In this document: positions 19,401 through 64,000 of the stretch, piece after piece
Layout: every line of letters starts with the position of its first letter
How positions within the stretch are numbered: the stretch's first letter is position 1
From: Patescibacteria group bacterium
GTDB taxonomy: Bacteria; Patescibacteriota; Microgenomatia; Levybacterales; GWA1-39-11
Assembly: GCA_035549295.1 (NCBI GenBank)
Contig: DASZRG010000021.1
Coordinates: 2,596 to 66,595 of the forward strand
DNA length: 64,000 nt
Direction: 5' to 3'
Made by a program: the position numbers and the translations under genes
Notes under the pieces: generated by a model
What the model was told of the DNA's origin: nothing
What the model saw: the letters and a program-made list of their open reading frames with translations, nothing else
Databases searched by the model: none

Positions 19401-19401
19401 A

Positions 19402-50278: not shown

Positions 50279-50305
50279 CAACCCCGCTAAGCGGGGTTTT
50301 GTCTA
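50279..50305 (+). terminator. Terminator-like hairpin (aaccccgc-TAA-gcggggtt + TTTG)
   Basis: gcaaccccgctaagcggggttttgtc. The T-run is on the plus strand only, although the neighbouring genes are on the minus strand. Confidence 0.35.
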
Positions 50306-50399
50306 TTAGAATTTTGTTATCCTTCGTCGTTTTAATATAGTTATTCACTATATATAAGTAAGCCGACTACGCAGATAAATAAATTCGCTGTATACCTTT

Positions 50400-50450
50400 G
50401 TTAAAGAACAAACTAGAGACTAGATATTAGAAACTAGATACTAGATCTGC
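50400..50450. repeat. Family-A heptamer repeats
   Basis: caaactagagactagatattagaaactagatactagatc. Confidence 0.75.
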
Positions 50451-50622
50451 TTATTGATCTGTTTAAGTCCAGAGTACCTAACTCTAGGGACCGTCCTTAA
50501 TTAAGGCCGGAGATAGTGGTTTCAGGGATCTAAAGATTGGTTAGAGGATTTGTTGTGGAGATTTTTGAAACTGCCTGAAACTGCTTTCTCCTTACTTAAT
50601 TCCTGCTCAGCAGGACTTTATT

Positions 50623-51324: not shown

Positions 51325-51399
51325 GTATCTTTCGGCATTAAAAATGCCAATTCAGGATTCTATCATACTATTGATGGTTTGTCAAGCCCATAGTATATC

Positions 51400-51910
51400 T
51401 TGATAAGTATCAAGAGTATCAAAAGTACCAAGGGTATCAAGAGTATGTAAAAGAAGTGAAAGAATTTGTGGAATCCTGTAAGATATTAGTATGGACCGTG
51501 CGTCAAAAAGCTACAGGATGCTAATATTATGGGAAAAGCTGTGTAACTTGGTCAAATTCACATATAAATTGGTGGATTTGTTGCCTAGATCAGAAGATTT
51601 AGGCTTAAAGTCTCAGATGCGAAGGGCAGTAGTGTCTGTAATATCCAATTTTGTAGAAGGTTATTTGAAGTCAAGCACGAAGGAAAAACTGCACTTTCTA
51701 GAGATTGCGCAAACGTCACTACTTGAACTTGAGGCTCAGGCTGAAGTATGTCTGATGCTTAGCTACTGGTCTGAGGCTAATTATGAAGAATTCGAGCGTA
51801 TCAGAGCTGAAGCTGGCTATTTCCTACATAGATATAAGGCTAAAATCGCTTCTTAGCGCATTAGCCCTTGATACTTGTGGTACCCATGATACCCCTTGAT
51901 ACCTTCCGAA
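51400..51910. repeat. IVS-like cassette: four-helix-bundle gene bracketed by inverted GTATCAA-type heptamer arrays
   Basis: Left arm gtatcaagagtatcaaaagtaccaagggtatcaagagtat (51401-51446). Right arm gatacttgtggtacccatgataccccttgatacc (51870-51905) is its approximate reverse complement. Confidence 0.65.
51491..51856 (+). CDS. Four-helix-bundle protein (23S rRNA IVS protein / Avd-like family)
   Basis: LPRSEDLGLKSQMRRAVVSVISNFVEGY matches the same consensus as 18284..18640. Confidence 0.8.
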   Translation: MDRASKSYRMLILWEKLCNLVKFTYKLVDLLPRSEDLGLKSQMRRAVVSVISNFVEGYLKSSTKEKLHFLEIAQTSLLELEAQAEVCLMLSYWSEANYEEFERIRAEAGYFLHRYKAKIAS

Positions 51911-51984
51911 GCGTACCTGCAAAAAGCTGCCTACAAATTTATACGGGCCTGTCTTCCTATATAAATATGTTTATAGACAGCTTT

Positions 51985-52050
51985 TTGCAGCTAAGGTGTG
52001 GTCCTGGAGGGGTAGTGCGTAGCTTGAGGCTAGCGCTGCCCCTCCAGGGG
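51985..52050. terminator. GC-rich hairpin (cctggagggg-N26-cccctccagg)
   Basis: tcctggaggggtagtgcgtagcttgaggctagcgctgcccctccagggg followed by tattctttg on the plus strand. Confidence 0.35.
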
Positions 52051-52124
52051 TATTCTTTGACAAATGTCCTTGCGGTAGGGTTATTACGCCCTTTTTTGGC
52101 CTATTTTAGACCAAAAGACTCCGC

Positions 52125-52168
52125 ACAGCCTTGATCAGGTCTGTCAGGCACGAGATTGTGCCTGATCA
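52125..52168 (-). terminator. Hairpin overlapping the stop of the Flp-like gene, T-rich tract on minus strand
   Basis: ctgtcaggcacgagattgtgcctgatcag. The minus strand continues ...gagtcttttggtctaaaata. Confidence 0.4.
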
Positions 52169-52696
52169 GTTGGAGGTGAAGGTCCCGAAGCCGCTGGTCC
52201 TCGTGTAGATGGGTACAAGCGGGCATTGTGCCTGGCAAAAGTCCAGGTATGCCTGATGTATCAACGTCTCAGTGCGAGGATCGGTCCTGAGGCCGTCCGG
52301 GCCCGTGTCGTAGATGAAGCGTTTGCTCCAGTTGGCCTTGAGGTCAACCTGAGGCTGCGCGCCTTGGCTGTCACGGTCCATGACGATCCTGGCGACCACG
52401 AAGTCCCCGGGATTGAAAGATGCCTGAGTGACGCCGTCCGAGAAGCCCGTAGGCATCACGAAGACGTACACCTCATAAGACGGGGTGTCGGACGCGAGCG
52501 CCTCAGGCTGCTGCTGAAGCTGGATCGAGCCTCCAGGCTTGGGCGTAGGAGTCGCATCGCTTTTGCCTTTACTGCCACCACCGCTAAGTGTGGCTAGGAT
52601 GGCGATGGCGGCGATGGCCAGGAGTGCGACGATGAGGCCGTACTCCACGAGTGTCTGGCCACCTTCGTCACTGTTGAAAATTTTGAGAAGCTTCAT
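52166..52696 (-). CDS. Flp/Fap-type pilin-like protein (class III prepilin-like N-terminus) with extended C-terminal domain
   Basis: MKLLKIFNSDEGGQTLVEYGLIVALLAIAAIAILATL follows the Flp pattern (..G.t.vEYgLi.aliav..i). RBS GGAGGA. No tad/cpa genes in the window. Confidence 0.5.
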   Translation of the reverse strand: MKLLKIFNSDEGGQTLVEYGLIVALLAIAAIAILATLSGGGSKGKSDATPTPKPGGSIQLQQQPEALASDTPSYEVYVFVMPTGFSDGVTQASFNPGDFVVARIVMDRDSQGAQPQVDLKANWSKRFIYDTGPDGLRTDPRTETLIHQAYLDFCQAQCPLVPIYTRTSGFGTFTSN

Positions 52697-52818
52697 TTCT
52701 CCTCCGGAGAAGTCTTGTCTCGCACGATGCGAGGGCTAGCCTAAAGCTATCTTCGTGCCTATTTGTGCCTGAATCCTCCTTAAACTCAGTGAAAGTAGAG
52801 TGCGGGACGCGCGTCCGG

Positions 52819-53205
52819 CTACACGTTGGGGTTAGGAGGTAGATCGTCGCCTTCGTCGTTGGGCGGTATCACTGGGAACTCTTCGTTCCAGGCGCTCATG
52901 ATGTCGACGATGAGCTTGGTATTGCTTCCTCTAAGCTTTAGCCCTAGAACGTCGACCACTGAGAAGATGGCGCTTTTGACTATGAAGGCGTTGAGGCCGG
53001 TTGGACGCTGAGCGCTCCTGGTCTCGATGCCGTGGTCGTATGCCATCACGTGATGCGTTCGGAGATACTCCCGGGCATCTGGAAGTCGGTCCGCGCTTCG
53101 CTTCTGAAGCTTCGTTTCGAGAACCTTGATTACCAGATACGCAGGGTAGGCTGGTTCTCCCAGCTTAACTTCCCACTGATTCAAAATCTCTTGTGGAGTT
53201 TGCAT
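52819..53205 (-). CDS. Hypothetical protein (128 aa)
   Basis: ATG with AAGGAG RBS. No motif recognised. Confidence 0.45.
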   Translation of the reverse strand: MQTPQEILNQWEVKLGEPAYPAYLVIKVLETKLQKRSADRLPDAREYLRTHHVMAYDHGIETRSAQRPTGLNAFIVKSAIFSVVDVLGLKLRGSNTKLIVDIMSAWNEEFPVIPPNDEGDDLPPNPNV

Positions 53206-53469
53206 GTCTCTCCTTCTTAGGCGGCGTGGGTGTCTAACTTTTTAGGCTGACGCCACTTGATGCCGTTCAGAATGGCGAAGACGCCACTCCTGTAGCCGAG
53301 TCTTTGCCTGAGTGCAGCGCGGTTAACGCGATGCGCCTTCTCAGGCTTTTGTTCGGACTCGCCCTGTTCGATCTCGTCCATTTTCGTCTCCTGCGCTTGT
53401 TATGCGCAAACTATCGAGCCGACGATCGGCTCGGTTGTTTAACCAGTTGGTTAACCTTTTCCGGCTACC

Positions 53470-53811
53470 TTACGGCACCAGAATTGGTTCCAGGCGTTGC
53501 GTTATCCTTCCGTTTTGAATGGCTCGATCGAGCCAGGCGTTGTCGTCTATCTCAGAGCTCGGGTCGATGTACGAAACCGGCATCACCGAGCTTGGCGTGT
53601 TTGGCTTGTTGAGGTCGAACACGTAGACAGGGTAGAGTACTATGGCCCCATCTTCCAGTGTGGACGGCGTTGCGCTTGGAGCGTTCTCATCCGCAGGCCG
53701 AAGATCCTTGGGGTCAAAGATCCCAAGGGAAATCTCCAGAACTGCAAAGAGAGCTACGATGAGGAGTAAACCGATTGCCAAGGGGCTGAACGGGACGCGA
53801 TTCTTGAGCAT
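53470..53811 (-). CDS. Hypothetical N-terminally membrane-anchored protein (113 aa)
   Basis: RBS GAGAGGA. TM segment PLAIGLLLIVALFAVLEISLGIF. Confidence 0.45.
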   Translation of the reverse strand: MLKNRVPFSPLAIGLLLIVALFAVLEISLGIFDPKDLRPADENAPSATPSTLEDGAIVLYPVYVFDLNKPNTPSSVMPVSYIDPSSEIDDNAWLDRAIQNGRITQRLEPILVP

Positions 53812-53839
53812 TTCAATTTCCTCTCTTCAGGTCGTAGAT

Positions 53840-54259
53840 CTAGTCGTCTGAAACGATAAAGTGTTTTGCCTTGACAATCAGGCGGACCTGATTGCAGTAG
53901 CTTTTGGGACAGAACGCATGGTAGTAGAACTCCAGAAGCTCATCGTCGTCGATCGGAACTTGAAAAACGTGCGAGAAAAATGGTTTGAGTTCCACCTCAG
54001 CCACGTTTTGCGAAGCTTCTGTAATCTGCGCCGTCACGATTATGTAGTCCTGTTCGTTGAGAATCTCCTGTGATATGTAGTCATTCGGAAGATACACGCG
54101 TTCAGGATTTACGATGATGTAGTACATCTCGTGGACGGGTAGTGGCGCTTCTGAGACCAGAGTCAGTTGAACGCTGGGCTCGTAGTTGGCCGATATATCG
54201 GCTGCGGCTGCAATAAGCAGAGCAACTGATATGAGCACCAATAAACGTATGTGGTGCAT
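53840..54259 (-). CDS. Hypothetical secreted protein (139 aa)
   Basis: Signal peptide MHHIRLLVLISVALLIAAAADISA. Confidence 0.5.
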   Translation of the reverse strand: MHHIRLLVLISVALLIAAAADISANYEPSVQLTLVSEAPLPVHEMYYIIVNPERVYLPNDYISQEILNEQDYIIVTAQITEASQNVAEVELKPFFSHVFQVPIDDDELLEFYYHAFCPKSYCNQVRLIVKAKHFIVSDD

Positions 54260-54394
54260 AGCGGGGTGTGTCTCGTCCTTTCTACTAAAAACTGGATAGA
54301 TGTGTTGTTGGATCGTATTTTACGCGACCACCTTACCTTCGTTATATACCTCCATGATTATATTTCTGCCTGACAAACGGACAGCCGAATGGAG

Positions 54395-54535
54395 TTAATT
54401 GAATAAGCAAATAAGCAAAGTTCAAATAAGCAAATGAATGCAAAATAAAGTAAATGTTAAATATTTAGAATTAAAACATTCAAACATTTAAACATTCATT
54501 TGAGCTTTATCATTTGCATATTTGCTTATTAACCC
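54395..54535. repeat. Large imperfect palindrome, family F
   Basis: aataagcaaataagcaaagttcaaataagcaaatgaatgc...cattcatttgagctttatcatttgcatatttgcttatt. Confidence 0.75.
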
Positions 54536-54579
54536 CGTTAGGCTGCCCATTTAGTACTGGCAGATTTCGGACATTTGTC

Positions 54580-55090
54580 AAATTATTAATGTGCTAATTA
54601 GTAACTAGAAACTAGATATTAGAGACTAGTTTATGCAAATAAAACTAGCACTAAATACCGAGCTAAATTACTAAATTCGTTGAATATTATTAATCAACGA
54701 ATAGATGTCTAGAAATAAGAATTTCTAAGCATTTATCTATTGACTAAAGATTCGTTTTCTTCGTTTTATTATTCCTTATCATCCTGAAACGTTAGTGAAT
54801 GATCTTTTTAAAGATTCTTCATTTCACTCAGAATGACATTATTTCTTAAGTTCTTCGTTGAACGGTAACGATTCCCGTTTCGTTGCTTGGTTACGTTTGT
54901 CGTAAAACTTAACCGATACGGGTTTCGTAACCTTTTAACAATTAACGAAAATTATTTTGATCCCGGAAAGAGTAGTGCGCAGCATAGCTGGCATTTCCCA
55001 ATCCGGGATCGTGTTTCTGTTGGCCTCAATCGCCAAGAACTTGCACCAGAGGCGCAATCTTGGCTTAAAAAGCCTATTCTATTTCGAGAC
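54580..55090. repeat. G element copy 1 (modular hairpin-rich cassette-boundary repeat; left end degenerate/fused to family-A heptamers; right TIR ctatttcgagac)
   Basis: Shares with G3/G4 the boxes agtttatgcaaa, gattcttca.ttc..tcagaatgacatta and gatcccggaaagagtagtgc.cagcatagctggca...tccgggatc. Shares with G2 the box cgttgaata..at.aatcaacgaatagatg. Ends 2 bp before the stop of 55092..55406. Confidence 0.8.
54854..54949. mobile_element. Nested ~96-bp MITE-like insert inside G1 (TIR ttcgttgaacggtaacg / cgtaacc-ttttaaca-attaacgaa)
   Basis: Present in G1 and G4 (62112-62208) at the same position but absent from G3, where cagaatgacatta is followed directly by the gatcccggaa hairpin. Internal second inverted pair cccgtttcg/cgatacggg. 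Confidence 0.65.
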
Positions 55091-55091
55091 G

Positions 55092-55406
55092 TTAGGTTGG
55101 CGGCAGGTACTTTTCGATGTCCTCGATCCGGGCGTGCCAGATGGAGACTTCCGTCTTTGGGTCGAATTCCTTGTGACGAACCGCCATGTGTAGATCCAGA
55201 AGCAGGTCGGCAAAGTTCGTGGCGTACCAGAACTCACGGTGAATGTCGTCTCCGACGTATCTTGCTAGGAATGCAAGATACGCGAAACCGCTGTACAGAC
55301 GTACAGGCTTCGTTGGCATTCGATCGAGCACTAGTGCAGTGCACTTAATGAGCTCGATGACCGCTTGTGAGTCCGTGATTTTGATGGTCACGTTTTGAGT
55401 TGTCAT
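55092..55406 (-). CDS. Hypothetical protein (104 aa), cassette-terminal 'MTTQ' gene
   Basis: RBS AAGGAGG. The N-terminus MTTQN is encoded by the conserved atgacaactcaaaacg, shared with 60500..60886. Confidence 0.5.
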   Translation of the reverse strand: MTTQNVTIKITDSQAVIELIKCTALVLDRMPTKPVRLYSGFAYLAFLARYVGDDIHREFWYATNFADLLLDLHMAVRHKEFDPKTEVSIWHARIEDIEKYLPPT

Positions 55407-55415
55407 GGTGCCTCC

Positions 55416-56027
55416 TTAGTGGCAGGGTTCTAGATTCGCGATATCGTTCTCGTATGCAACCTCAGGCGTGATACCGCCAGGCGCGCGGACGATGCCCTGA
55501 CGGACAGTGCCGCCGATTTGGGCGCCTCTCATAAGGCAAGGGGTCGGGAAAGTCTTCCCGTCCTCAAGCGTTATGAAGCCCCAGGCATCTTGCAGGGGTC
55601 TGAAATGAATCACTCCCCAGCCGCTGACACCTCCACCGTCCTCGCTTGCCAGCGGGATGGGTTTAAAGGAGGTGACTTTGCAGGTCGTCATAGACGACCT
55701 TTCGGTGGGCGATGGGTTCACTCGCCTATCGGTATTGTCCGAAATGGGTAAGTGAACAATGCCACCACTCGGCGCCTTCACGAGAAGACAAGCGCCCGAT
55801 GTTGGGTCGAGCTCAAGTCCTGTGAACAGGATGATGTCGTCTCCAAAGACTGAGTCATTCTGCTTGAAGATCCTGTAGGGGCCGTTATTTCCGACTATTT
55901 CAGTCGGGGTCAGCGTCGGTTTGACTGTGACTTCGACCCCCTTGGGTGTACCCAGTATTGCGAACGCCGATACGGCGACCGCGAACAAAAGGGCGCCTAT
56001 TCCAAGATGCACGAGATTTTTATTCAT
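55416..56027 (-). CDS. Hypothetical secreted protein (203 aa)
   Basis: RBS AGGAGG. Signal peptide MNKNLVHLGIGALLFAVAVSAFA. Confidence 0.5.
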   Translation of the reverse strand: MNKNLVHLGIGALLFAVAVSAFAILGTPKGVEVTVKPTLTPTEIVGNNGPYRIFKQNDSVFGDDIILFTGLELDPTSGACLLVKAPSGGIVHLPISDNTDRRVNPSPTERSSMTTCKVTSFKPIPLASEDGGGVSGWGVIHFRPLQDAWGFITLEDGKTFPTPCLMRGAQIGGTVRQGIVRAPGGITPEVAYENDIANLEPCH

Positions 56028-56084
56028 GGCGGGGCCTCCTAGGGCCTTGAACTCCGATTGGGTCGCGGTTGGAAGCGACGCTTA

Positions 56085-56435
56085 CTACGTTGGATGCTTC
56101 GTCATGCAGATCTCAAACGGGACTTCGCTTTTGTACCAGCCAACAATCGTAACGCTGTTCGGGCCGAAAATGAACATCGGTGTGCCGGTCGTGTCTGAAA
56201 ATCCACGAGTGGTAGAACTGTATTTGATCTCCATCGTGGGTTGGTGACCTCGTCGTCGAACGATTGAAGCGGAATGCAGCTTCTGGTTGGAGATCCAGTC
56301 GTAGTTTGGCGTTTTGTCTAAGGAGTACCAACGGTATTCCTCGACGTCAAACTCGCCCTCACCAAATAGCGACAAGAGGTCGCTCCTGATAGTCGGTGCG
56401 TTTTCGGATGTTAGCCAGACAATTTTGGAATCCAT
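56085..56435 (-). CDS. Small cytoplasmic protein, paralog family (C-terminal motif FIFxxxxVTI/V)
   Basis: Preceded by the conserved leader acagtctgaggaggactgaaaa-ATG. MFIFGPNSVTIVGWY resembles RFIFEDDRVTVQYF (61365..61727) and SFVFDGDKVTIRDM (60500..60886). Confidence 0.5.
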   Translation of the reverse strand: MDSKIVWLTSENAPTIRSDLLSLFGEGEFDVEEYRWYSLDKTPNYDWISNQKLHSASIVRRRGHQPTMEIKYSSTTRGFSDTTGTPMFIFGPNSVTIVGWYKSEVPFEICMTKHPT

Positions 56436-56470
56436 TTTTCAGTCCTCCTCAGACTGTCTAAATACTGCGC

Positions 56471-56833
56471 TTAAGATGAGGCTTTCTGATCGCGGATGTC
56501 TGCTTTATTGAGAATTACTGTGAAGTAGCTCTCAAATCGCGCATCCAAAACCCTTTTCAACCTACTTGTGAGACGACGTTGTCCTTCATTCGTCAACCTG
56601 TTGTGGAGACGATTGTCGATCGTAACTTCGGCGAGCATGACGCCCATGTTCTCGGGGCTCACGCTGTCATACGGAAGCCAAAAGATACTTATGTTCACGA
56701 TCTGTTCTGGAAAATCCAGAATTTGTGACAAAGCCATTGAAAGATCCTGACGCGTGATTCTCCTTGTATCTGAACTTAGTCTCTCGTATTTTTCGCGAGA
56801 GGGATAGATCTTAAAGATTGCATCGAATGCCAT
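56471..56833 (-). CDS. Hypothetical protein (120 aa)
   Basis: Conserved leader ...cagtcttaggaggactgaaaaaaa-ATG. Confidence 0.5.
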   Translation of the reverse strand: MAFDAIFKIYPSREKYERLSSDTRRITRQDLSMALSQILDFPEQIVNISIFWLPYDSVSPENMGVMLAEVTIDNRLHNRLTNEGQRRLTSRLKRVLDARFESYFTVILNKADIRDQKASS

Positions 56834-56874
56834 TTTTTTCAGTCCTCCTAAGACTGTTTGAACTTAGACCATGC

Positions 56875-56910
56875 CAATGAAGCGGAATTGAACCGTTTGT
56901 TTTCCTGAAA
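56875..56910. promoter_or_regulatory. Conserved ~35-nt hairpin box gcggaattgaaccgtttgttttcctgaaaaggaac (copy 1)
   Basis: Near-identical copy at ~61762-61796, both just upstream (minus sense) of a gene RBS. The minus-sense fold is aaacgg-ttcaatt-ccgttt followed by a T-run. Confidence 0.45.
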
Positions 56911-56929
56911 AGGAACAGCATAGCAACAA

Positions 56930-57010
56930 TTAGTGAATCAGGAAGCAAGAATCATGAATCAAGGAATTAGCTTTTGATACCCTTGATACCTTTGATACTT
57001 CTGATACTTT
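56930..57010. repeat. Mixed heptamer arrays (AATCA[AG]G then GTATCAA reverse-complement)
   Basis: aatcaggaagcaagaatcatgaatcaaggaattagc ttttgatacccttgatacctttgatacttctgatac. Confidence 0.75.
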
Positions 57011-57044
57011 TCTAAATTGCGACCACGATGTTCCTCTCCAGGTG

Positions 57045-57460
57045 TCTCGAAATAGATTTTCAAGGTGCGAAGCACCGCAGACCCTGAGCGACTTCGCCAA
57101 AGGCGAGGAGTCGAACGGGTCAAAGTGCTTATCTAGTAACCAGCGTCTAGAAGCTAGCTTTTAGCGTCTAGTTAACTGATTAACTAAATTTATCGTTGAA
57201 TAATCAACGAATAGATGAGTAGAAGAGATTCTGAAACTAGTTCAGAATGACAAGCTTTCTACACATTCATTTATTGATTTATATTTGTTCCGGAAGGTAG
57301 TTTTCAGCATAGTGCTGAGCTTTCCTTCCGGAACGGTTCCTCCTTTCAGAGGGTCTTCCACCTCAAATGGTCTGGTTCGCGGCTTATGCGAACTGTTCCA
57401 CTTTTGGTGGTGGCTCCGCATTGACTTGCGTCATGCGGAGTAAACGAGATAGTCCTTCGG
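57045..57460. repeat. G element copy 2 (left TIR tctcgaaatag; covariant hairpin gttccggaagg...ccttccggaac; right end diverged)
   Basis: Shares the head tctcgaaatagattttcaa with G4, the box cgttgaataatcaacgaatagatg with G1, and the tail cctcctttcagaggg.cttccacct...ttttggtgg with G4. The central hairpin keeps the loop (agcatag.gctg) but has a different stem from G1/G3/G4. Confidence 0.75.
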
Positions 57461-57478
57461 CAGGCTCAGGATCTGCGA

Positions 57479-57946
57479 TCAGTGGGGGCTGACGATGATG
57501 TACCAGCCGAGAATGACTACAGCGCCGACGGTGATCGTCAGCACAATGCGTCCCCAGAGGGACATATTTATGAGAGATCGCTTGACGAACTTGATGCCGA
57601 GCAGTGTATGCCAGGCGACGACCGCGACGACCACCACGACTATGAACAAAAGTCCACAGGTGATGAAAGCGATGCTAAATAGTGTGTTGCCGAGAGCTCC
57701 CACGATATCGTGTCGAATCTCGTTGAGAAGGCCGACGAAGATTTCTTCCGGTGACTGTTGGGTCTCCTGCCCGTCGTATCTCGCAGCTACAGATACGATA
57801 ACGAACGCCAACAGGCCGCCGCTGAAACCAACGGGGAGCGCTATGACAAAGGGTAGTTCATGGATGCTGGTTGCGACCACCAGCACACCGAAAAACCCAG
57901 CCATGAATTTGGGCAATATTGAGTGCATCGAGTTCCAAACTCGCAT
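57479..57946 (-). CDS. Polytopic small membrane protein (~155 aa)
   Basis: Internal ATG at 57946 preceded by AAAGGAGG 5 nt upstream. The track ORF begins at GTG 57976. 4 TM helices. Confidence 0.5.
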   Translation of the reverse strand: MRVWNSMHSILPKFMAGFFGVLVVATSIHELPFVIALPVGFSGGLLAFVIVSVAARYDGQETQQSPEEIFVGLLNEIRHDIVGALGNTLFSIAFITCGLLFIVVVVVAVVAWHTLLGIKFVKRSLINMSLWGRIVLTITVGAVVILGWYIIVSPH

Positions 57947-57956
57947 GATACCTCCT

Positions 57957-58151
57957 TTAGTCCGATTTGCGACCACGCATGAGCGTGAACATCACTGCGA
58001 AGACCAGGGCAAAGTTTATGAAATTCTCAGCCCTTTCTTCGAATTCTGACTTGTGCGGGTTGAGTTGAGCTTGGAGTTGAGCTTGAAGCTTCTCCTCTGT
58101 CTCACCAAGCCAAGTCAGACCACGGCAGATGTTTTTGACGAGTTTGATCAC
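57957..58151 (-). CDS. Small protein (64 aa) with C-terminal TM helix
   Basis: GTG start with AAGGAGG RBS. FALVFAVMFTLM. Confidence 0.45.
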   Translation of the reverse strand: MIKLVKNICRGLTWLGETEEKLQAQLQAQLNPHKSEFEERAENFINFALVFAVMFTLMRGRKSD

Positions 58152-58174
58152 GTGTTACATCCTCCTTGCGTGGG

Positions 58175-58546
58175 TTAGATGTGTGACGTAGCCCAGACGA
58201 TTGCGAGTGTGCCTAGGGCGATCAAGACGATGGCCGATATGGAAATGAGCCCTACGGCAACTGCTACTGCGCGGTCGCCGAAAGTCTCGAGGAGCGCTAG
58301 TCGAGCCTCGTTGATAAGGCCGGAAAAGCTCTCGTTTACACGATCTGAGTCGAACGATCGGCCAGCACCGATCAGGAAATCCCGAATCAGGCTGGTCACA
58401 ATGAAGGATGCGACTAGGCACGCCCAAACTGGTAGGCCACTTGTGAGGGTAACGACAAATATCGTAACCCAACATAGGATGGCGATGAAGTTCTCCAAGA
58501 GCTCGTTTGCCAAACTGTTGACTATGCGCTGTAAAAGGTTGAGCAC
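58175..58546 (-). CDS. Small membrane protein (123 aa, 3 TM)
   Basis: GTG with AGGAGG RBS. Chosen over the overlapping-frame ORF 58155..58475. Confidence 0.5.
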   Translation of the reverse strand: MLNLLQRIVNSLANELLENFIAILCWVTIFVVTLTSGLPVWACLVASFIVTSLIRDFLIGAGRSFDSDRVNESFSGLINEARLALLETFGDRAVAVAVGLISISAIVLIALGTLAIVWATSHI

Positions 58547-58556
58547 GTGGTGCCTC

Positions 58557-59354
58557 CTAGGTGCGCGGGAACATGGTTCCAGGATGGCTTTCGAACGTAG
58601 TTCGTACCATCTGGGTTAGTTCCTGCGGCTCTCCGACGAAGGCGTTTGCGTCGACGAAAACTCCGTCGATGCTTGTTCCGACGATGAACGGGAAGAGGTT
58701 ATAGTTGCTGATGCTCTCCCGTCCGCGGTGGTAGATGATCCGGATCTTGCTGGCTACCCCAGGTTGGACTTCTTCGATCTTCTCCCTGATAAAGCGAGCT
58801 AGGTATATTGCTCTGAGCACTTTCCACCGGCTTGAACCGAGGAGCACGAATGTCGTGTTCTCTGGGATCGTGACGCCGTCAAGCACCATTTTCAGCTGTG
58901 AGCTGATGATTTGATCATCATCAGTGAGAAACGAGTTTTCACCCGGTCCTACGCAGATGATGGGCGCGACGCCGTAGTCCTGGGCTTGGAGAGTTAGCTT
59001 CTGCAAGCTAGTGCTGTCGAAGCTTGGGCGAAGACGCGCCTGGGGCGAACCGAGAATGGCTCGTGCGTTGTATTCGCGCATCATCTCTCCAGGCACACCT
59101 GTGATAGGACCCGATGTCCAGTGGTCGGTGATGTTGACGGCGATGCCAGGCAACAATCCGCCGATCGTCGTCTGTGCGATCAGCTGACTTGTGTCGCGGA
59201 TCAAGTACTGCGGGACGCAGAAGAGAAGTTCCACTGCGAGTTCGTGCGCATCCCGAACGACTGGCGAGACGTTTTGCAAAAGCGTTCTCTCGCTGCAGTC
59301 ATCGGGTAGATTCGCGATGATCAAGGGCATGCGGTTTACGATATTAGCTGTCAT
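58557..59354 (-). CDS. Hypothetical cytoplasmic protein (265 aa), largest gene of the array
   Basis: ATG with AGGAG RBS. Contains APIICVGPGENSF. No family assigned. Confidence 0.5.
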   Translation of the reverse strand: MTANIVNRMPLIIANLPDDCSERTLLQNVSPVVRDAHELAVELLFCVPQYLIRDTSQLIAQTTIGGLLPGIAVNITDHWTSGPITGVPGEMMREYNARAILGSPQARLRPSFDSTSLQKLTLQAQDYGVAPIICVGPGENSFLTDDDQIISSQLKMVLDGVTIPENTTFVLLGSSRWKVLRAIYLARFIREKIEEVQPGVASKIRIIYHRGRESISNYNLFPFIVGTSIDGVFVDANAFVGEPQELTQMVRTTFESHPGTMFPRT

Positions 59355-59377
59355 TTCGGTTCTCCTGAGACCCTAAT

Positions 59378-59569
59378 TTAAGGGATGTTGTGTTTGGGTT
59401 GTTGGTCCACGAGGCCGTATCTTGCCTCGAGCAAGATTCTGACAAGCCATTCAGGCTTGTCGAATTGCTTCGCGGCATGCTGGACGAGGTGTTCAAACCT
59501 CTCCTCAAACGTTTCGTTGTTCGTCGCTGCCTCGGTAGGCTTCACGGGTGCTGTGCTACAGTTTGTCAT
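59378..59569 (-). CDS. Small hypothetical protein (63 aa)
   Basis: ATGA overlap with the upstream gene stop. RBS AGAGAGG. Confidence 0.4.
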   Translation of the reverse strand: MTNCSTAPVKPTEAATNNETFEERFEHLVQHAAKQFDKPEWLVRILLEARYGLVDQQPKHNIP

Positions 59570-59823
59570 CTTGCTGCCTCTCTGTACTGGGATTCGAAAC
59601 CCCAGCGGATTACTTTCCGGCCTTCAACTTCGAGAACGAGTTTCTCGTCAGTGTCAGGTGGTCCAACAGACATTTCTGTCCAGGCCAGTCCGTTTTCTCC
59701 AGATCCGAAAAGTTTGCCTAATTTTGGATCGAAGCAGAGGCTTTCGAGTGTAAAGTCGAGTTTGACAATTCCAGTTTCCCGTGAGATCCAAGTTACTGTG
59801 CCATGTTTGAGATTTGACATCAT
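59566..59823 (-). CDS. Small hypothetical protein (85 aa)
   Basis: RBS AAAGGGTGA. First gene after G3. Confidence 0.45.
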   Translation of the reverse strand: MMSNLKHGTVTWISRETGIVKLDFTLESLCFDPKLGKLFGSGENGLAWTEMSVGPPDTDEKLVLEVEGRKVIRWGFESQYREAAR

Positions 59824-59960
59824 GATAAATTGATCACCCTTTCAGCGCTATACGCTTGAACTAAAGTGCCAGCTTCCAGATGAGAAGCGTTGTACTCCGA
59901 ACCTGTCATTCGAAGCACAAAGCTTCCCACCGGAAGACTGTGATTCCTTTATCTTTATAA

Positions 59961-60297
59961 CTATCTCGAATTGTCAAAGAGCAAATGGTTCTTAGCTTTT
60001 AGCTCTTGGCAGTTAGTTTATGCAAAACAAACTAAAGCCAAATGCTTATGACTAAAAACCTCGTGTAATATCATTCTGAAAAAAGCGATAGAGTAAGATT
60101 CTTCACTTCGTTCAGAATGACATTAGTGTTTTTTTGATCCCGGAAAGAGTAGTGCACAGCATAGCTGGCAGTAATCCATCCGGGATCGATATTTTCTTCC
60201 ACCTTCGCGTGAAGCTTCGGTGGATAAGCCACAGAGTGGGTATTGACCGCGGCTTTCGCGAACTGTACCACAGAGTGGGCTAGTGTCTATTTCGAGA
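59961..60297. repeat. G element copy 3 (shortest; lacks nested MITE; TIRs ctatctcgaattg / ctatttcgagaag)
   Basis: Head agagcaaatgg.tcttagcttttagctcttggca.ttagtttatgcaaaacaaactaaa is ~90% identical to G4, and the same hairpins follow. Confidence 0.8.
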
Positions 60298-60305
60298 AGT
60301 ATGGC

Positions 60306-60492
60306 TTAGAAAGCGTTCAGCATTGCTTCGAGTAGCGAAAAACCTCCTCCCATTATTGCTAAGGTGCCGATGACGGCCAGTAGGACTCCATGCTTGCTGC
60401 GCTTCAGCTGGACCCAGCAGTATACTGAAAGTGCCAGCAGAAATAGTCCTGCAACAAGCAGAGAGATGACAGTTAAGTTCATGTCGATTCGC
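60306..60492 (-). CDS. Candidate small hydrophobic protein (~58 aa; not in ORF track)
   Basis: Manual translation MNLTVISLLVAGLFLLALSVYCWVQLKRSKHGVLLAVIGTLAIMGGGFSLLEAMLNAF. The stop lies ~8 bp from the G3 right TIR. Preferred over overlapping track ORF 60280..60579. Coordinates +/-5. Confidence 0.3.
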
Positions 60493-60499
60493 TGCCGGA

Positions 60500-60886
60500 C
60501 TAGTGCTCGACGGCGAAGGTGACCTCAAAGTAGTGGTCATCGCCGTCCATGTCACGGATGGTAACCTTGTCACCATCAAACACGAACGAAGGCACGAGGC
60601 CTTCGCGGTAGTAGTCAGTGTCCTGGAAGCAGTACATGCCCTCTGTATATCGAATGCAGAGGGTCGCGTAGTCCTGCAAGTTGCGGGCTTCGGCAGTAAT
60701 GCCGGATCCGATGAGGCGTTGGCCGTTGAGAACGGTCGTCAAAGTCGGCTCATCGGTTTGATCGTTGAACCACTTGCGCTCGCGGACGCTAAAGGTGACT
60801 TTGTTGCCACCCAGTAACGCGCGCATTTCGCTGCAGAGGTCCAAAGCCGAATTACGCCAAAGACCGATTCCGTTTTGAGTTGTCAT
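60500..60886 (-). CDS. Small cytoplasmic protein, paralog family (MTTQN N-terminus; C-terminal FVFDGDKVTI motif)
   Basis: Conserved leader cagcctgaggaggactgaa-ATGacaactcaaaacgg. Paralogous to 61365..61727 and 56085..56435. Confidence 0.5.
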   Translation of the reverse strand: MTTQNGIGLWRNSALDLCSEMRALLGGNKVTFSVRERKWFNDQTDEPTLTTVLNGQRLIGSGITAEARNLQDYATLCIRYTEGMYCFQDTDYYREGLVPSFVFDGDKVTIRDMDGDDHYFEVTFAVEH

Positions 60887-60914
60887 TTCAGTCCTCCTCA
60901 GGCTGTTGAACTAG

Positions 60915-61334
60915 TTAGATGTCGAGTTTGGTCATCGGTTCACCAAGGATTTCGAAGTCCTTGGCGGGGACGGGGTCAAAGCTTTCGTCCCACTTTCTGT
61001 TCCTGAATCTGACCCGCGTGCCAATTGGTATATTGGTTGCGAGTGTCGAGTCAGTCTTGTATCGATGTTTGTCACCGGTTATCGTGAAGATATTCTCAAG
61101 CCAGACGTTGTCCGGCTCAGATAAGATCGATGCGATTATCCCGGTTTTCGTGGTCGTGGGTGGTTTTAGGAGTTTGCTTATGACGCCAATCACGAAGCAT
61201 ACTCCAATCGCCGGCCAAATGATCACATTGAAGATTTTAAAGGGTATGATCCCAAAAATATCTAGAATTATGATTATCCAGAACGGCAGTGTGAACCAGA
61301 AGCCGCGAACCGTGCGGAATATTTTGTTAGCCAT
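60915..61334 (-). CDS. N-terminally membrane-embedded protein (139 aa)
   Basis: RBS AGGAGG inside a cagtcctcctg-type leader. Two TM helices then a soluble domain. Confidence 0.5.
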   Translation of the reverse strand: MANKIFRTVRGFWFTLPFWIIIILDIFGIIPFKIFNVIIWPAIGVCFVIGVISKLLKPPTTTKTGIIASILSEPDNVWLENIFTITGDKHRYKTDSTLATNIPIGTRVRFRNRKWDESFDPVPAKDFEILGEPMTKLDI

Positions 61335-61364
61335 TTTGACCTCAGTCCTCCTGCGTTGTGCTGG

Positions 61365-61727
61365 CTAGTCTTCGATTGCGAAGATGGCCTGCGCGAGATA
61401 TCCGTGCTCGAAGTATTGAACTGTGACACGGTCGTCCTCGAAGATAAAACGAGGAAGGCCGTTTCCTCTCCACTTGTCGTTGATTTCCCAGTCGCCTTCG
61501 TTGAAATGAACCGTGATTTGTTCGCCGCCCGCGACGTCAGTCTCGGATGCCGATCGATATGTGACTTTTGGTTCGGTCAAATACCTTTTGACCTGCAGCG
61601 TGAGGGTCGACCTAAAGTTTGCGATTTGTACTTGCTTCGCGTACGTGAACTTGTGGTCCGTTAGTAGATCTATGAGATCTTTGACGATCTCAGGCGTCGT
61701 GTCGTGCGTGAATTCGATTGTCTTCAT
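61365..61727 (-). CDS. Small cytoplasmic protein, paralog family (C-terminal RFIFEDDRVTVQYF)
   Basis: RBS AAGGAG, preceded by a terminator-like copy of the 35-nt hairpin box. Confidence 0.5.
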   Translation of the reverse strand: MKTIEFTHDTTPEIVKDLIDLLTDHKFTYAKQVQIANFRSTLTLQVKRYLTEPKVTYRSASETDVAGGEQITVHFNEGDWEINDKWRGNGLPRFIFEDDRVTVQYFEHGYLAQAIFAIED

Positions 61728-61761
61728 TCCAGTTACTCCTTGCTAGTTTGCCTGCCAATAA

Positions 61762-61796
61762 AAACGGAATTGAACCGTTTGTTTTCCTGAAAAGGA
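61762..61796. promoter_or_regulatory. Conserved ~35-nt hairpin box (copy 2)
   Basis: aaaaacggaattgaaccgtttgttttcctgaaaaggaac. Minus sense reads aaacgg-ttcaatt-ccgttttt then RBS aaggag. Confidence 0.45.
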
Positions 61797-61938
61797 ACCT
61801 GCCGGGGGCAACAGTTAACAAGTTAACAAAGTAACAAATTAACCTTACCCACGAGAAGTTCCTCTTCAGGATTCCAACCCCACCTCAGTCCTCCCCTAAA
61901 ATAGGAGAAGAAGACCAAGGTTTTTGGTTATATATATT

Positions 61939-62397
61939 GTCTCGAAATAGATTTTCAAAGAGCAAATGGCTTTTAGCTTTTAGCTCTTGGCACTTAGTTT
62001 ATGCAAAACAAACTAAAACCAATACTTTGGCTAAAAACCTCTCATGTAATATCATTCTGAAAAAAGCAAAGATTCTTCACTTCGTTCAGAATGACATTAT
62101 TTCTTTAGTTTTTCGTTGAACGGTAACGATGCCCGTTTCGTCATTCGGTTACGTTTACCGTAAAACTTAAAACGATACTGGCTTCATAACCTTTTAACGA
62201 TTAACGAAAAAGTATATTTGATCCCGGAAAGAGTAGTGCACAGCAGAGCTGGCATGTTCCCAATCCGGGATCTGTTGTTCCTCCTTTCAGAGGGGTTTCC
62301 ACCTAGTGGATCCACTCACGCTGTGTGAGGTTCACCATTTTGGTGGTCCCGCCTTCATCCCACAAAGGGATTTCGGCGAGGTAAACTATTTCGAGAC
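61939..62397. repeat. G element copy 4 (complete: 12-bp TIRs gtctcgaaatag / ctatttcgagac; contains nested MITE at 62112-62208)
   Basis: All modules present. Ends 2 bp before the stop of 62400..62783. Confidence 0.85.
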
Positions 62398-62399
62398 GG

Positions 62400-62783
62400 T
62401 TAGGCGACGGGAGTCGGGACTGCGGCAGCAGCAGCTTTGGCCTGCGCCTCTGCTTCTGCTTCGTAGACCTCCTCGACGTCGATGAGCCAGAGACCGGTCT
62501 CCCGGATCTCGACTACGTCGAACTCATGCCGAGCGAACCGGATCCTGGCTACCAAGTCCTCGTAGGACTCGGAGCCAATGTAATACCAGATCTCGTCATG
62601 AGTCATCCAGCGTTCGATGCCAGGAGCCTTGTCATCACTCTTGGAATGAACCCAGGCGATGTAGACGCAGTTCTCCGACGGGGGAGGGAGTTCCTCTGTC
62701 GGTAGACCGGTGGCTACATGTCGACTCGAGTGAAGCATGCTGAGAACATACACTGGAGTTTTAACTGTGTGTTGGGTGGTCAT
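62400..62783 (-). CDS. Hypothetical protein (127 aa), cassette-terminal 'MTTQ' gene with Ala/Glu-rich tail
   Basis: MTTQHTV N-terminus, EAEAEAQAKAAAAA tail. Confidence 0.5.
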   Translation of the reverse strand: MTTQHTVKTPVYVLSMLHSSRHVATGLPTEELPPPSENCVYIAWVHSKSDDKAPGIERWMTHDEIWYYIGSESYEDLVARIRFARHEFDVVEIRETGLWLIDVEEVYEAEAEAQAKAAAAAVPTPVA

Positions 62784-62927
62784 GGAGCTAGCCCTTTCTG
62801 GCCTGAAATTCCGCGCGGCGGGATCAAATTGAAGTCCGACTTCTCAAAGAGAGAAGTCAACGAGCATTAGTTGTCCTCCTGTCTGCTGCGCAGGTGGTTC
62901 TCGCTTGCGTGCGAGTTAGCGCTTCAT

Positions 62928-63096
62928 GAAATGTCGCCGAATGGCGCGATTGTAGATGCGCTCATCGCGTGCTTGCCTGTCCTCAAACTTTTGTGCAGTT
63001 GCCGTGGGCTGATTTTGATTTCTTGCGAAACCCCAAACAGCACAGACAATGACGAGAAAAAGCAATCCAAAAATGATGTACACTTTGCCTCCTCGC
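62928..63096 (-). CDS. Candidate small membrane protein (~56 aa; not in ORF track)
   Basis: Manual translation VYIIFGLLFLVIVCAVWGFARNQNQPTATAQKFEDRQARDERIYNRAIRRHFMKR. GTG preceded by GAGGAGG. Coordinates +/-5. Confidence 0.3.
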
Positions 63097-63126
63097 GGCC
63101 GAAATGATCCGAACCTGTGGGATTCC

Positions 63127-63462
63127 TTAAAGCCGTTCGGTATGCACCTCGACTTTTAGAATCCTCTCGTAGTGAGAGAAGGTGAAAGTCGTCCTGTCTT
63201 CTCCTGTCGCAACGTGCCGGTCCATCACGGCTCGAATGAGCGGAACTGTTATCCCGCCTGGTTTGAAGTAATCGGCGATGAGTGTGAGCGGCAAAACCGC
63301 TTCCAGCACATCCGCCGAATGCTCGGCTATGAGCTCTTGAATGCGGGCCGCCGTAGGGACGTTCTCGGAAATCTGGATGATCTCGATGTCACCATAGATG
63401 CGGTGAAGCTCGTTGATTTGAGCTTCCGTTACCTTGTGGCGAGTGAGTCGCAATATTTTCAT
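63127..63462 (-). CDS. Hypothetical protein (~111 aa)
   Basis: Internal ATG (MKILRLTRHKVTE...) preceded by the conserved acagtctggaggactgag leader. The track ORF 63127..63735 N-terminal extension is rejected. Confidence 0.45.
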   Translation of the reverse strand: MKILRLTRHKVTEAQINELHRIYGDIEIIQISENVPTAARIQELIAEHSADVLEAVLPLTLIADYFKPGGITVPLIRAVMDRHVATGEDRTTFTFSHYERILKVEVHTERL

Positions 63463-63520
63463 CTCAGTCCTCCAGACTGTTGTTAAAGCGCTAGTCGTTG
63501 ACCCGTTTTGGATCTGAGCC

Positions 63521-63925
63521 TTAGCGGCTTTGCTCCCAGGATGGGAAGGGGTTGCTGCACTCCTCCCACTCGTCGTCTGGGTCGTCCTGACCTTTTTTCT
63601 CAAACCATTGTCGGTGAGAGAAGATGTCGTCACTGTCGTGGAAAGGTAGTCCATTGATGTGCCGGAAGGAAGGTATCCTGTATCGGTTGAACGCGTCGTC
63701 CAGGTTGGTTCCCTCCCAGAGAGTCGTGGGCTCATTCATGTTGCCCGCGGCGTCTCCCCGAGAGTCTCGCACCCTGTAAACGGGGCGACTTGCAATGTGC
63801 TCAGCGGCTTTGTCCCAGTGGGATTTGTAGATCCATGGGAAAGCCTTGGGGCGGCCATCACTGTCTTCGCCAAGTTCGTAGGCGACTTCGTCGCCAATCT
63901 CGAGCGTGACTCTGAACTTGGACAT
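63521..63925 (-). CDS. Hypothetical acidic protein (134 aa)
   Basis: ORF with the same codon usage as its neighbours. Trp-rich (WIYKSHWDKAAEH, WEECSNPFPSWEQ). Confidence 0.45.
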   Translation of the reverse strand: MSKFRVTLEIGDEVAYELGEDSDGRPKAFPWIYKSHWDKAAEHIASRPVYRVRDSRGDAAGNMNEPTTLWEGTNLDDAFNRYRIPSFRHINGLPFHDSDDIFSHRQWFEKKGQDDPDDEWEECSNPFPSWEQSR

Positions 63926-64000
63926 TCTTTGTCCTCGATCAAACTTGGGCTCATCGCCGTTTCTGTTTACCTGAAATGCGTCTCCGTAGTAACAAAAAAG

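Follow-up and report, generated by a model that had tools for sequence, protein, structure and literature searches.

In our preferred reading, to which we assign a probability of about one half, the repeated elements G1-G4 (54580-55090, 57045-57460, 59961-60297 and 61939-62397) are the conserved cores of BIME/BOX-like mosaic intergenic repeats that separate operon blocks and act as structured intercistronic RNA and as homology patches, and are not one integrated element. The elements are repeated and mosaic, one of their hairpins covaries, they fold with a strand bias, and the locus that holds them varies by whole blocks among related genomes. This variable locus, between rho and a DUF11 gene, is the larger finding: it is a compositionally foreign, hypervariable island in a Levybacteria (Patescibacteria) genome and a hot spot for foreign-looking small genes in operon-sized blocks.

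By ORF listing and public gene calls, 22-25 co-oriented small genes occupy the minus strand at 52166-64000 of the window (the whole 64,000-nt stretch of DNA analysed), as a sequence-only reading of this DNA had proposed. That reading divided the array into cassettes; the unit between two spacers is instead an operon of 2-6 genes, with intra-block intergenic gaps of -4 to 122 nt, and not a single-gene cassette. GC3 is 0.64 in the island genes vs 0.34 in host genes, and the GC content of the spacers (0.35-0.45) is host-like. All blocks lie on the minus strand. Block C5 (52166-54259, GC3 0.59-0.73) has five genes of 139, 113, 54, 128 and 176 aa, the last protein being Flp-pilin-like, and block C4 (55092-56833) has four of 120, 116, 203 and 104 aa, of which the 116-aa protein belongs to a paralogue family with four members. 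Six genes of 85, 63, 265 (TIM-barrel-like), 123, 64 and 155 aa make up block C3 (57479-59823). Block C2 (60306-61727) encodes proteins of 120, 139 and 128 aa together with a likely 58-aa ORF (60306-60482), probably a two-helix membrane ORF, that has no call in the public annotation. Block C1 (62400-64000; 127, 55, 111 and 185 aa) continues past the window end, its first gene extending to window-equivalent position 64078. C4 was recovered by independent assembly from run SRR12170510, and C1 was found, identical, in the independent assembly L006. The DUF11/CLIPPER surface-protein gene (50623-51324, minus strand; Pfam DUF11, 1.5e-9; sortase-type C-terminal signal) has host composition (GC3 0.22) and 50-61% identity to the gene in the equivalent position in five relatives; it is a core gene and serves as a conserved landmark of the locus. 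Between it and a GT2 gene lies block C6 (46599-50125), with four GC3-rich orphan genes (69, 483, 246 and 302 aa; GC3 0.63-0.77) that matched no Pfam or PHROGs family.

The four copies described from sequence alone are all present, but there are more: G5 and a partial G6 lie past the window end, at window-equivalent positions of about 64,260-64,600 and 65,550-65,730, and 52001-52051 holds a further copy of the hairpin. Each element forms the conserved core of a whole inter-operon gap (590-840 bp), and these spacers each consist of about 8-12 independent hairpin modules, strung together in shuffled order and choice. Modules are common to the copies at 77-97% identity in a patchy mosaic and are freely present or absent, with element lengths from 340 to 460 nt; the proteins of the genes flanking the spacers show no identity, or only 19-42%, between copies. 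On the array strand (minus), spacer G0 (51325-52165) carries at 52001-52051 a third stem variant of the hairpin (covariance model 18.8 bits, E 0.008), a second hairpin with 29-nt arms (51914-51993) and, on the opposite strand, a 23S-rRNA-IVP-like gene (51491-51856) flanked by inverted 9-mer arrays (51397-51451 and 51865-51905). Spacer G1 (54260-55091, minus; 832 nt, GC 0.35) has its repeat core at 54580-55090, the hairpin at 54959-55010, a 12-nt box at 55079-55090, next to the stop codon at 55092, and a 130-nt AT-rich palindrome (54402-54530) with further copies at 44754-44880 and 21369-21472. In spacer G2 (56834-57478, minus; 645 nt) we found a box at 57044-57055, a solo 9-mer array at 56971-57017 and the alternative-stem hairpin at 57287-57334 (27.8 bits, E 1e-5). 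Spacer G3 (59824-60305, minus) holds the hairpin at 60136-60187, a one-mismatch box at 60287-60298 and an arm of a 25-mer hairpin within 60095-60125. The 672 nt of spacer G4 (61728-62399, minus) comprise two intact boxes (61939-61950 and 62386-62397), the hairpin at 62220-62272, a 105-nt long hairpin at about 62106-62214 and a 53-nt hairpin with the 25-mer at 62047-62099.

The conserved boxes noted earlier were recovered, as agtttatgcaaaacaaactaaa (family D6) and as tcattctgaa...ttcagaatgaca (D3, D20, I8, I10), and TCATTCTGA occurred 6 times vs 1.0 expected, 6/6 within elements. The proposed terminal inverted repeats were seen cleanly in G4 only and do not mark out a discrete bounded element in the other copies: both 12-nt boxes are intact in G4, one is mismatched and one partly deleted in G3, and only the right box is present in G1 and only the left in G2. 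In the window the box has four exact occurrences and one with one mismatch, all in the island. As had been claimed, the right box lies near a stop codon in three copies, at 1 (G1), 7 (G3) and 2 nt (G4), the G3 distance being valid only if the uncalled 58-aa ORF is a real gene. This position of the box, 1-7 nt after the stop in three copies, and the inverted second copy are not explained by a string of hairpins alone and count against the mosaic-hairpin reading. The repeated modules also continue beyond the boxes, since the stretch of 150-250 nt that separates each element from the gene after it is repeated as well; a 36-nt leader (module 'a') has copies in G2 (56881-56916) and G4 (61763-61798), and a 79-nt leader is common to G3 and G5.

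A MITE-like non-autonomous transposon, a 340-460-bp unit bounded by GTCTCGAAATAG / CTATTTCGAGAC with its transposase elsewhere and inserted repeatedly just downstream of island operon ends, would fit the island-only inverted 12-mers (four exact and one near-exact across the 64 kb) and island-specific core modules that reach 97% identity between copies beside unrelated genes; moreover, the 130-nt palindrome in the same spacers does act like a dispersed MITE. We nevertheless find such an origin unlikely, as no copy is flanked by a target-site duplication, two intact ends exist in G4 only, repeated modules extend past the boxes, and the 19-mer end sequence matched metagenomes only at chance level and viral contigs not at all. 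No integrase, transposase or other recombinase was found among the ORFs tested or pre-annotated in the window, in agreement with the sequence-only reading, or among those of the upstream flank.

The spacer modules have three origins, namely genome-wide intergenic repeats of the host, a cosmopolitan 25-nt hairpin module and an island-only core set. The core set (12-nt box, 70-nt module, ~50-nt hairpin and 105-nt hairpin) was seen within the contig only in the island, with no copy outside it in about 73 kb, which also speaks against a MITE. This confinement is unlike the typical genome-wide distribution of BIME/BOX repeats and counts against the mosaic-hairpin reading. Other modules recur in host intergenic gaps (window 525-579, 13205-13327, 18648-18680, 19325-19409, 20065-20111, 21369-21472, 36198-36227 and 44754-44880). 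The cosmopolitan 25-mer is present in 42 unrelated viral contigs with a GC content of 36-67%, where AC..GT or GC..GC is always matched. Its core, (G/A)CGAAG(C/T), and flanks, GA/GA and ATTCT/AGAAT, fit the d(GCGAAGC)-type mini-hairpins of the GCGNAGC class, DNA hairpins for which extraordinary stability is described (PMC13037366), although that literature covers oligonucleotides and few natural sites; we found no mention of the 25-mer in the papers searched. With modules shuffled among copies, several of them in distant host gaps and one cosmopolitan, the earlier comparison to BOX/ERIC-type mosaic repeats is supported.

Spacer modules recur near rho (G6) and downstream of DUF11 in the same genome, as well as in the corresponding regions of relatives (L070 9155-9257, L073 8308-8372, L075 8272-8305). 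Together with the host-like GC of the spacers, this would agree with a duplicated landing pad, where homology-assisted recombination (e.g. after DNA uptake) brought each new block into the native rho-DUF11 intergenic region, every time duplicating parts of it and leaving the spacers as functionless relics. We regard this as improbable, since the core modules have no counterpart in the relatives' intergenic regions and strand-biased folding is unexpected for relics. In addition, patches of 88-97% identity adjoin genes that have diverged past recognition, and call for constraint or continuing conversion.

The two stems reported for the ~50-nt hairpin are real, GATCCCGGA...TCCGGGATC in G1, G3 and G4 and GTTCCGGAAGG...CCTTCCGGAAC in G2, and the fold z-scores of these four copies run from -6.3 to -8. 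The G0 variant adds a third stem; all three pair perfectly but are unrelated in sequence, with both partners changed at no fewer than 7 pair positions, and they enclose an invariant core of ACUAC and AGC/GCU. When a covariance model was trained on G1, G3 and G4 only, it recovered G2, G5 and G0 (E 4e-6, 1e-5 and 0.008 across these), and the proposal of a selected nucleic-acid structure is thereby supported. The whole G4 element is predicted to fold at -179 kcal/mol into a hairpin chain closed by its two boxes (z = -11.5 for the mRNA strand, -9.3 for its complement). In each of the five spacers the mRNA-strand fold is favoured over that of the complement by 24-53 kcal/mol, the reverse of two coding controls. 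Outside the ~50-nt hairpin covariation is weak, which counts against the mosaic-hairpin reading: 398 paired positions between copies gave 1 compensatory change, 15 one-sided pair-keeping changes and 17 pair-breaking ones, and stems are substituted almost as often as loops (about 9.5% vs 11.7%). The very strong predicted structure with its closing terminal stem, and the bias to the sense strand, could suggest that each spacer encodes an independent functional RNA (e.g. regulatory or catalytic) that is large, structured and non-coding. This is very hard to credit, as freely present or absent modules and lengths of 340-460 nt are unlike a single tertiary fold, the Rfam scan found no family even at E up to 5, and no promoter/terminator pair brackets the spacers.

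On the array strand a 12/12 promoter match was found only at the array head, proximal to rho. Promoter matches in the spacers reach only 9/12, which is chance level; no canonical terminator was found directly after the genes, and neither kind of signal was convincing in any spacer. Across seven related Levybacteria genomes the number of GC3-rich orphan genes in the rho-to-DUF11 interval ranges from 0 to about 24. Every interval that contains such genes begins with a conserved consensus promoter and a structured leader, and the leader occurs only in these. Sister arrays of 9 genes (L074) and at least 14 genes (L069) have no large spacers and no match to core modules or hairpin model, the L074 spacer comparison being by BLAST only; the array therefore does not require the spacers. 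The absence of spacers from these sister arrays counts against the mosaic-hairpin reading.

The array resembles chromosomal integron arrays and CALINs (attC clusters without integrase) in several ways: its small genes are co-oriented, atypical in composition and mostly orphans, a structured repeat comes right after the stop codon (1-7 nt), the head has one strong (here perfect) promoter, and the number of units varies between relatives. Integron-like capture would make the spacers, or the ~50-nt hairpin with its differing stems and kept structure and internal-loop sequence, attC-analogous structure-specific sites at which an unlinked or unrecognised recombinase inserted circular blocks at the head, behind promoter and leader. 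We consider this decidedly unlikely. There is no canonical attC core site or size and no IntI, the head adjoins rho, a LysM-M23 peptidase, a TPR protein and a pilin-like protein rather than an integrase, blocks hold 2-6 genes as multi-gene operon units, the repeats are absent in the sister arrays, the hairpin model found no match in four relatives (L069, L070, L072 and L073), and block order is identical in two assemblies and one independent read assembly. The likeness to attC-delimited cassettes seen by the sequence-only reading is thus not borne out. As candidates, integron attC sites were rejected on core geometry, size, IntI and the multi-gene blocks, and RYYYAAC...GTTRRRY palindromes were found on neither strand of the 20-kb island.

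Under the mosaic-repeat reading, the array would be read from the one strong promoter at the rho-proximal head, past the structured leader, and the spacers would be transcribed with the genes and folded on the mRNA strand. Folded spacers may then serve as intercistronic barriers or processing sites, so that RNA ends and stability would be set separately for each block. As DNA, the spacers with their patchy similarity (77-97%) could provide homology for gene conversion among copies, and the same homology could allow gain, loss or exchange of whole blocks.

Among known systems, the BIMEs or REP clusters of enterobacteria are palindromic units in mosaic combinations downstream of operons. Like them, the spacers are intergenic, directly follow the last gene of an operon, combine several kinds of short imperfect palindromes variably, include some genome-dispersed units and have transcribed-strand hairpins expected to affect mRNA ends. 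They differ in their length, which at 590-840 bp and about 8-12 hairpins is several-fold greater, in core modules that the DNA seen shows in a single island, in that no RAYT-type transposase was seen, and in a conserved GTAG-like motif that lies inside the hairpin internal loop rather than 5' of the stem. In Streptococcus pneumoniae, BOX elements are modular (boxA-boxB-boxC), and the Correia elements of Neisseria have terminal inverted repeats able to close a long RNA stem; both are 100-300 bp and occur in tens to hundreds per genome. The spacers share the modular make-up of the former, the stem-closing terminal repeats of the latter and a site between genes that would be co-transcribed, but no sequence relation was found, and the known copies number only 5-6 and sit in a single array. 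Hypervariable regions or 'additive' flexible genomic islands occupy a fixed chromosomal site, and gut Bacteroidales have recombinase-associated orphan-gene arrays. Here too a fixed locus between core genes accumulates lineage-specific genes of foreign composition, with content that differs completely among relatives, although its border has no tRNA or recombinase gene and instead carries a conserved promoter and structured leader.

The array of small co-oriented minus-strand genes that the sequence-only reading had described was borne out by the public gene calls and our ORF list, which agree with each other; Shine-Dalgarno sequences are present and the intergenic gaps inside the blocks are −4 to 122 nt. 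The GC content is 34-45% in the host part of the window, and from about 46,600 on stretches of 50-60% alternate with stretches of 35-45%. A chimeric assembly was rejected, since the low-GC/high-GC junctions recur in an independent assembly from another run. The window contains no tRNA genes, and the Rho protein encoded next to the array shares 68-92% identity with the nearest matches that were found, of which the few named ones are mostly Candidatus Levybacteria. We also read the contig about 9.5 kb beyond the window end (flanking look-ups L003 and L005), and coordinates above 64,000 are window-equivalent.

Four hairpin-rich repeat copies had been located at 54580-55090 (G1), 57045-57460 (G2), 59961-60297 (G3) and 61939-62397 (G4), and all four were recovered there with their boxes and hairpin. 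As a count, four holds for the window but is incomplete, as G5 and a partial G6 follow past its end and 52001-52051 holds the hairpin with a third type of stem. Six occurrences of TCATTCTGA were counted where 1.0 would be expected, every one within elements, and the 12-nt box GTCTCGAAATAG, the end sequence of the elements, has four exact occurrences and one with a single mismatch, in elements only. Terminal inverted repeats had been ascribed to the copies in general; both boxes are intact in G4, but G1 retains only the stop-codon-proximal box, G2 only the distal box, and in G3 and G5 the boxes are imperfect. Repeated sequence was also found beyond the boxes, as a 36-nt leader before two blocks and a 79-nt leader (91% identity) ahead of two others. 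The units between the spacers, first described as small-gene cassettes, are operons of 2-6 genes, with inter-operon gaps of 588, 672, 676, 645, 832 and 841 nt. The repeats beyond the boxes, the extra copies and the operon-sized units together lead us to take the whole inter-operon gap as the true unit. The original observation was largely right, and the 12-nt box is placed with precision after stop codons.

Pairwise comparison of the spacers showed a patchwork similarity. G1 and G4 have 210 nt in common (88% identity), G3 and G4 158 nt (87%), G2 and G5 87 nt (94%), G3 and G5 79 nt (91%), G4 and G5 70 nt (97%), and G2 and G4 46 nt (93%). The genes between the spacers are without similarity or, in one four-member family, have 19-42% protein identity, and therefore the similarity of the spacers is maintained independently of the genes. 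The fold of G4 strings together about ten hairpins and is closed by the two boxes. Its energy is −179 kcal/mol (z = −11.5) for the mRNA strand, as against −160.7 (z = −9.3) for the opposite one, a bias that does not come from base composition because shuffled sequences have similar means for either strand. All five spacers (5/5) are more stable on the mRNA strand, by 24-53 kcal/mol, and two coding controls show the reverse. No Rfam family reached the gathering score in the window, and a search at E up to 5 of 50000-64000 and the array head gave chance-level hairpin matches only; a known RNA family was consequently rejected as the identity of the spacers.

The best-supported structure of the spacers is a conserved hairpin of about 50 nt. 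It comes in three stem versions, each perfectly paired: GAUCCCGGA in G1, G3 and G4, GUUCCGGAAGG in G2 and G5, and CCUGGAGGGG in G0, a further spacer of the series. The apical helix is CAGC/GCUG (UAGC/GCUA in G0) and ACUAC is unchanged across all versions, which upholds the earlier claim that the stem varies while its pairing is kept. A covariance model built from G1, G3 and G4 alone recovered G5 (E 4e-6), G2 (1e-5) and G0 (0.008), and had no match in four related loci. Outside this hairpin covariation in the spacers is weak, with 1 compensatory, 15 one-sided pair-keeping and 17 pair-breaking changes. A 20-mer of the hairpin had a single match among 185,579 species genomes, in a coding region (62-65% GC) from Acidobacteria, which we judged to be chance.

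Integron attC sites are imperfect palindromes of 57-141 bp with the core sites R'' (RYYYAAC) and R' (GTTRRRY). When both strands of the 20-kb island were scanned by regex and folding for RYYYAAC...GTTRRRY, each gave one candidate, in both of which the R boxes are unpaired, and the elements are 340-460 bp long with end sequences that differ from attC. The window ORFs with a Pfam scan or with precomputed Pfam annotation yielded neither IntI nor any other recombinase or transposase, as the sequence-only reading had stated, and none was seen in the upstream flank. The neighbours of the array head are rho, a LysM-M23 peptidase, a TPR protein and a pilin-like protein, with no integrase beside it, and a literature search for Patescibacteria with integron and attC returned nothing relevant. 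The analogy to integrons fails each testable defining feature, and that the spacers are a structure-specific recombination site appears quite unlikely.

We likewise regard an origin of the spacers from MITEs as unlikely. Target-site duplications are absent where the flanks were read directly, at G4 (..taacc/GTCTCG and CGAGAC/aatat..) and at G5 (..acaca/ and /aaaaac), and the ends of the elements are mostly incomplete. The box, a 70-nt module, the ~50-nt hairpin and a 105-nt hairpin are confined to the island within this contig, with no dispersed core-module copies in ~73 kb, and no transposase was seen in the window. Searches farther afield gave nothing beyond chance: viral contigs had no match to the four core modules tested there, and metagenomes and species genomes had no core-module match above the chance level. 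A 19-mer from the conserved end matched metagenomes 20 times, always seed-limited and with no second module nearby, and the one match inspected lay within a coding region.

Several other spacer modules are also found in host intergenic gaps distant from the island. Runs of ACTAGAN-type heptamers occur at 525-579, 13205-13327, 18648-18680, 19325-19409 and 20065-20111, a 9-mer array stands solo at 7341-7386 (another solo array lies in spacer G2, at 56971-57017), and one hairpin module lies in a host gap at 36198-36227. An AT-rich palindrome of 130 nt is present in intergenic DNA at 54402-54530, 44754-44880 and 21369-21472 (72-81% identity); it is dispersed, MITE-like and separate from the G elements. 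The GC content of the spacers, 0.35-0.45, is host-like, and together with the dispersed modules this matches a mosaic of the BIME/BOX type whose core is island-specific. The alignment and the pairwise module map, in which several kinds of short palindromic unit appear in variable order, fit the BOX/ERIC-type alternative that had been raised at the outset. Taken together, we give roughly even odds (about 0.5) to a reading of the spacers as BIME/BOX-like mosaic hairpin repeats which serve both as RNA structure between cistrons and as homology for recombination. Inside G0 there is in addition a plus-strand gene for a 23S-rRNA-intervening-sequence-protein or bAvd-like product (51491-51856), bracketed by inverted 9-mer arrays, GTATCAAGR / YCTTGATAC (51397-51905), and this arrangement looks like a small insertion unit.

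One spacer module carries a 25-mer, GTCATTCTGA(A/G)CGAAG(C/T)GAAGAATC (60095-60125 and 62047-62099), which was also found in 42 unrelated IMG/VR contigs (L007-L048) with a GC content of 36-67%. The variable bases read AC..GT 7 times and GC..GC 41 times and are never mixed, and therefore the two positions pair; an inverted second copy often follows 20-60 nt after the first. The core of the 25-mer fits the GCGNAGC mini-hairpin class (PMC13037366). Our literature search found no mention of the 25-mer itself, and its orientation relative to neighbouring ORFs in the viral contigs could not be interpreted, since GC-rich DNA yields spurious ORFs. Its spread over unrelated viral contigs merits a separate study.

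The same locus was taken from six relatives via Rho. The order of pyruvate kinase, a large GT-C-like protein, GT2, a DUF11 surface protein (50623-51324 in the window), rho (divergent), LysM-M23 and TPR is conserved. Between rho and DUF11 three relatives (L072, L073 and L075) have no array genes, L070 has two, L074 nine and L069 at least 14, its contig ending inside the array, and this genome has about 24. Another variable slot, smaller than the first, lies between DUF11 and GT2 in all genomes examined. In this genome (46599-50125), as in L070 and L072-L075, this slot holds GC3-rich orphan genes, one of which in L070 encodes a sigma-70 family protein. GC3 is 0.43-0.77, mostly above 0.54, in the variable genes vs. 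0.21-0.46 in the core neighbours of every genome examined. The content of the arrays is unrelated across genomes, except for a TIM-barrel-like gene (26-27% identity) and a Flp-like gene (29%) that this genome has in common with L069. In L069 and L074 the array genes form contiguous operons that lack both large spacers and any core-module match, and the hairpin model had no match in L069; the spacers therefore belong to the array of this genome and not to the locus as such. It is improbable, in our estimate, that they are insertion relics of a landing pad. Near the TPR gene some relatives encode giant proteins of 1331 to >4391 aa (L069 16599-21116, L072 15360-19871, L075 14840-18835) with matches to the Phage_int_SAM N-terminal domain, marked as weak in L072 and unmarked in L069 and L075, and no match to an integrase catalytic domain was recorded; they are probably surface proteins, not recombinases.

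Just beyond the window, at L005 7268-7296, the array strand has its only perfect (12/12) TTGACA-17-TATAAT promoter. Behind it comes a conserved structured leader, about 100-130 nt long, with CCAGC...GCUGG as its closing pair and then a run of seven U, promoter and leader together spanning L005 7268-7560 (window-equivalent ~65,900-66,195, minus strand). The promoter and the leader signature, ACCAGC, CCUGUCSG and GCUGGUUUUU in that order, are present in 4/4 genomes whose rho-DUF11 interval holds genes and in 0/3 where it holds none. The head leader has no Rfam match and may act as an attenuator or a riboswitch-like leader, or may be a small RNA. The array would be read from this head promoter, subject to the leader, and the spacers would form part of the array transcript. 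Within the spacers promoter matches are at chance level and no canonical terminator was found directly 3' of genes, and we see very little likelihood that each spacer is an independent RNA.

The island genes have a GC3 of 0.54-0.73, well apart from the 0.2-0.46 of the host. Many island proteins are secreted, membrane or pilin-like, and among the ~6-15 billion proteins searched the island genes have no detectable relatives save distant matches of one TIM-barrel-like gene. Against 1.8 billion cluster representatives the TIM-like protein matched, besides itself, a short stretch of a 1115-aa protein (E 1.6e-13), others being at E ~1e-4. A profile search of 5.8 billion proteins with the four-member paralogue family returned only its four members, and the AlphaFold model of this family has a mean pLDDT of 60.8, too low to support a fold search. 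Pfam, PHROGs and PADLOC gave a weak Flp-pilin match and a TIM-barrel match just over the Pfam cut-off, with RodZ_C, DUF1129, T2SSF and DUF2157 below threshold, and a PDB sequence search with four island proteins gave nothing. Phage and defence families are absent from these annotations, and a prophage or defence island was rejected on that ground. Elsewhere in the window, a YcaO cyclodehydratase and then a nitroreductase-family protein (6047-8166) adjoin an arylsulfotransferase-like gene (4646-5947) in what may be a peptide-modification gene cluster. At 39352-39918 there is a 188-aa protein with a PaaX central, Cas2-like domain (Pfam E 9.6e-19), with no CRISPR array or other cas genes seen near it.

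Bacteria of the Candidate Phyla Radiation have very small genomes and presumably live attached to other cells, and their gene acquisition and variation are poorly known. Here, one clade of Levybacteria has a fixed site in the chromosome with anything from no orphan genes to about two dozen. Such a site might be a new kind of gene-capture platform in Patescibacteria, in which operon-sized foreign blocks are inserted behind the fixed promoter and structured leader head next to rho, and in this genome the multi-hairpin spacers, or the ~50-nt hairpin with its invariant internal loop, are structure-specific sites for a non-integron recombinase encoded elsewhere; we consider this a long shot. If the spacers and leader act in gene capture or expression, the locus would offer a tractable model of gene flux and of surface variation in these organisms; failing that, the mosaic hairpin repeats of the spacers are still unusual in their size and cleanness.

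Read as mosaic hairpin repeats, the spacers are of a kind of element already known. Like REP/BIME sequences they sit directly after the last genes of operons and fold as a chain of hairpins. Of their units, the heptamer runs, the 130-nt palindrome, the 9-mer arrays and one hairpin are dispersed, and the four core modules (the box, the 70-nt module, the ~50-nt hairpin and the 105-nt hairpin) stay within the island in this contig. A RAYT (IS200/IS605-like) transposase was not seen among the tested ORFs of the window and upstream flank. New, as far as we have found, are the size of the spacers, their island-restricted core and their tie to a fixed, leader-headed, hypervariable locus of foreign composition in Patescibacteria.
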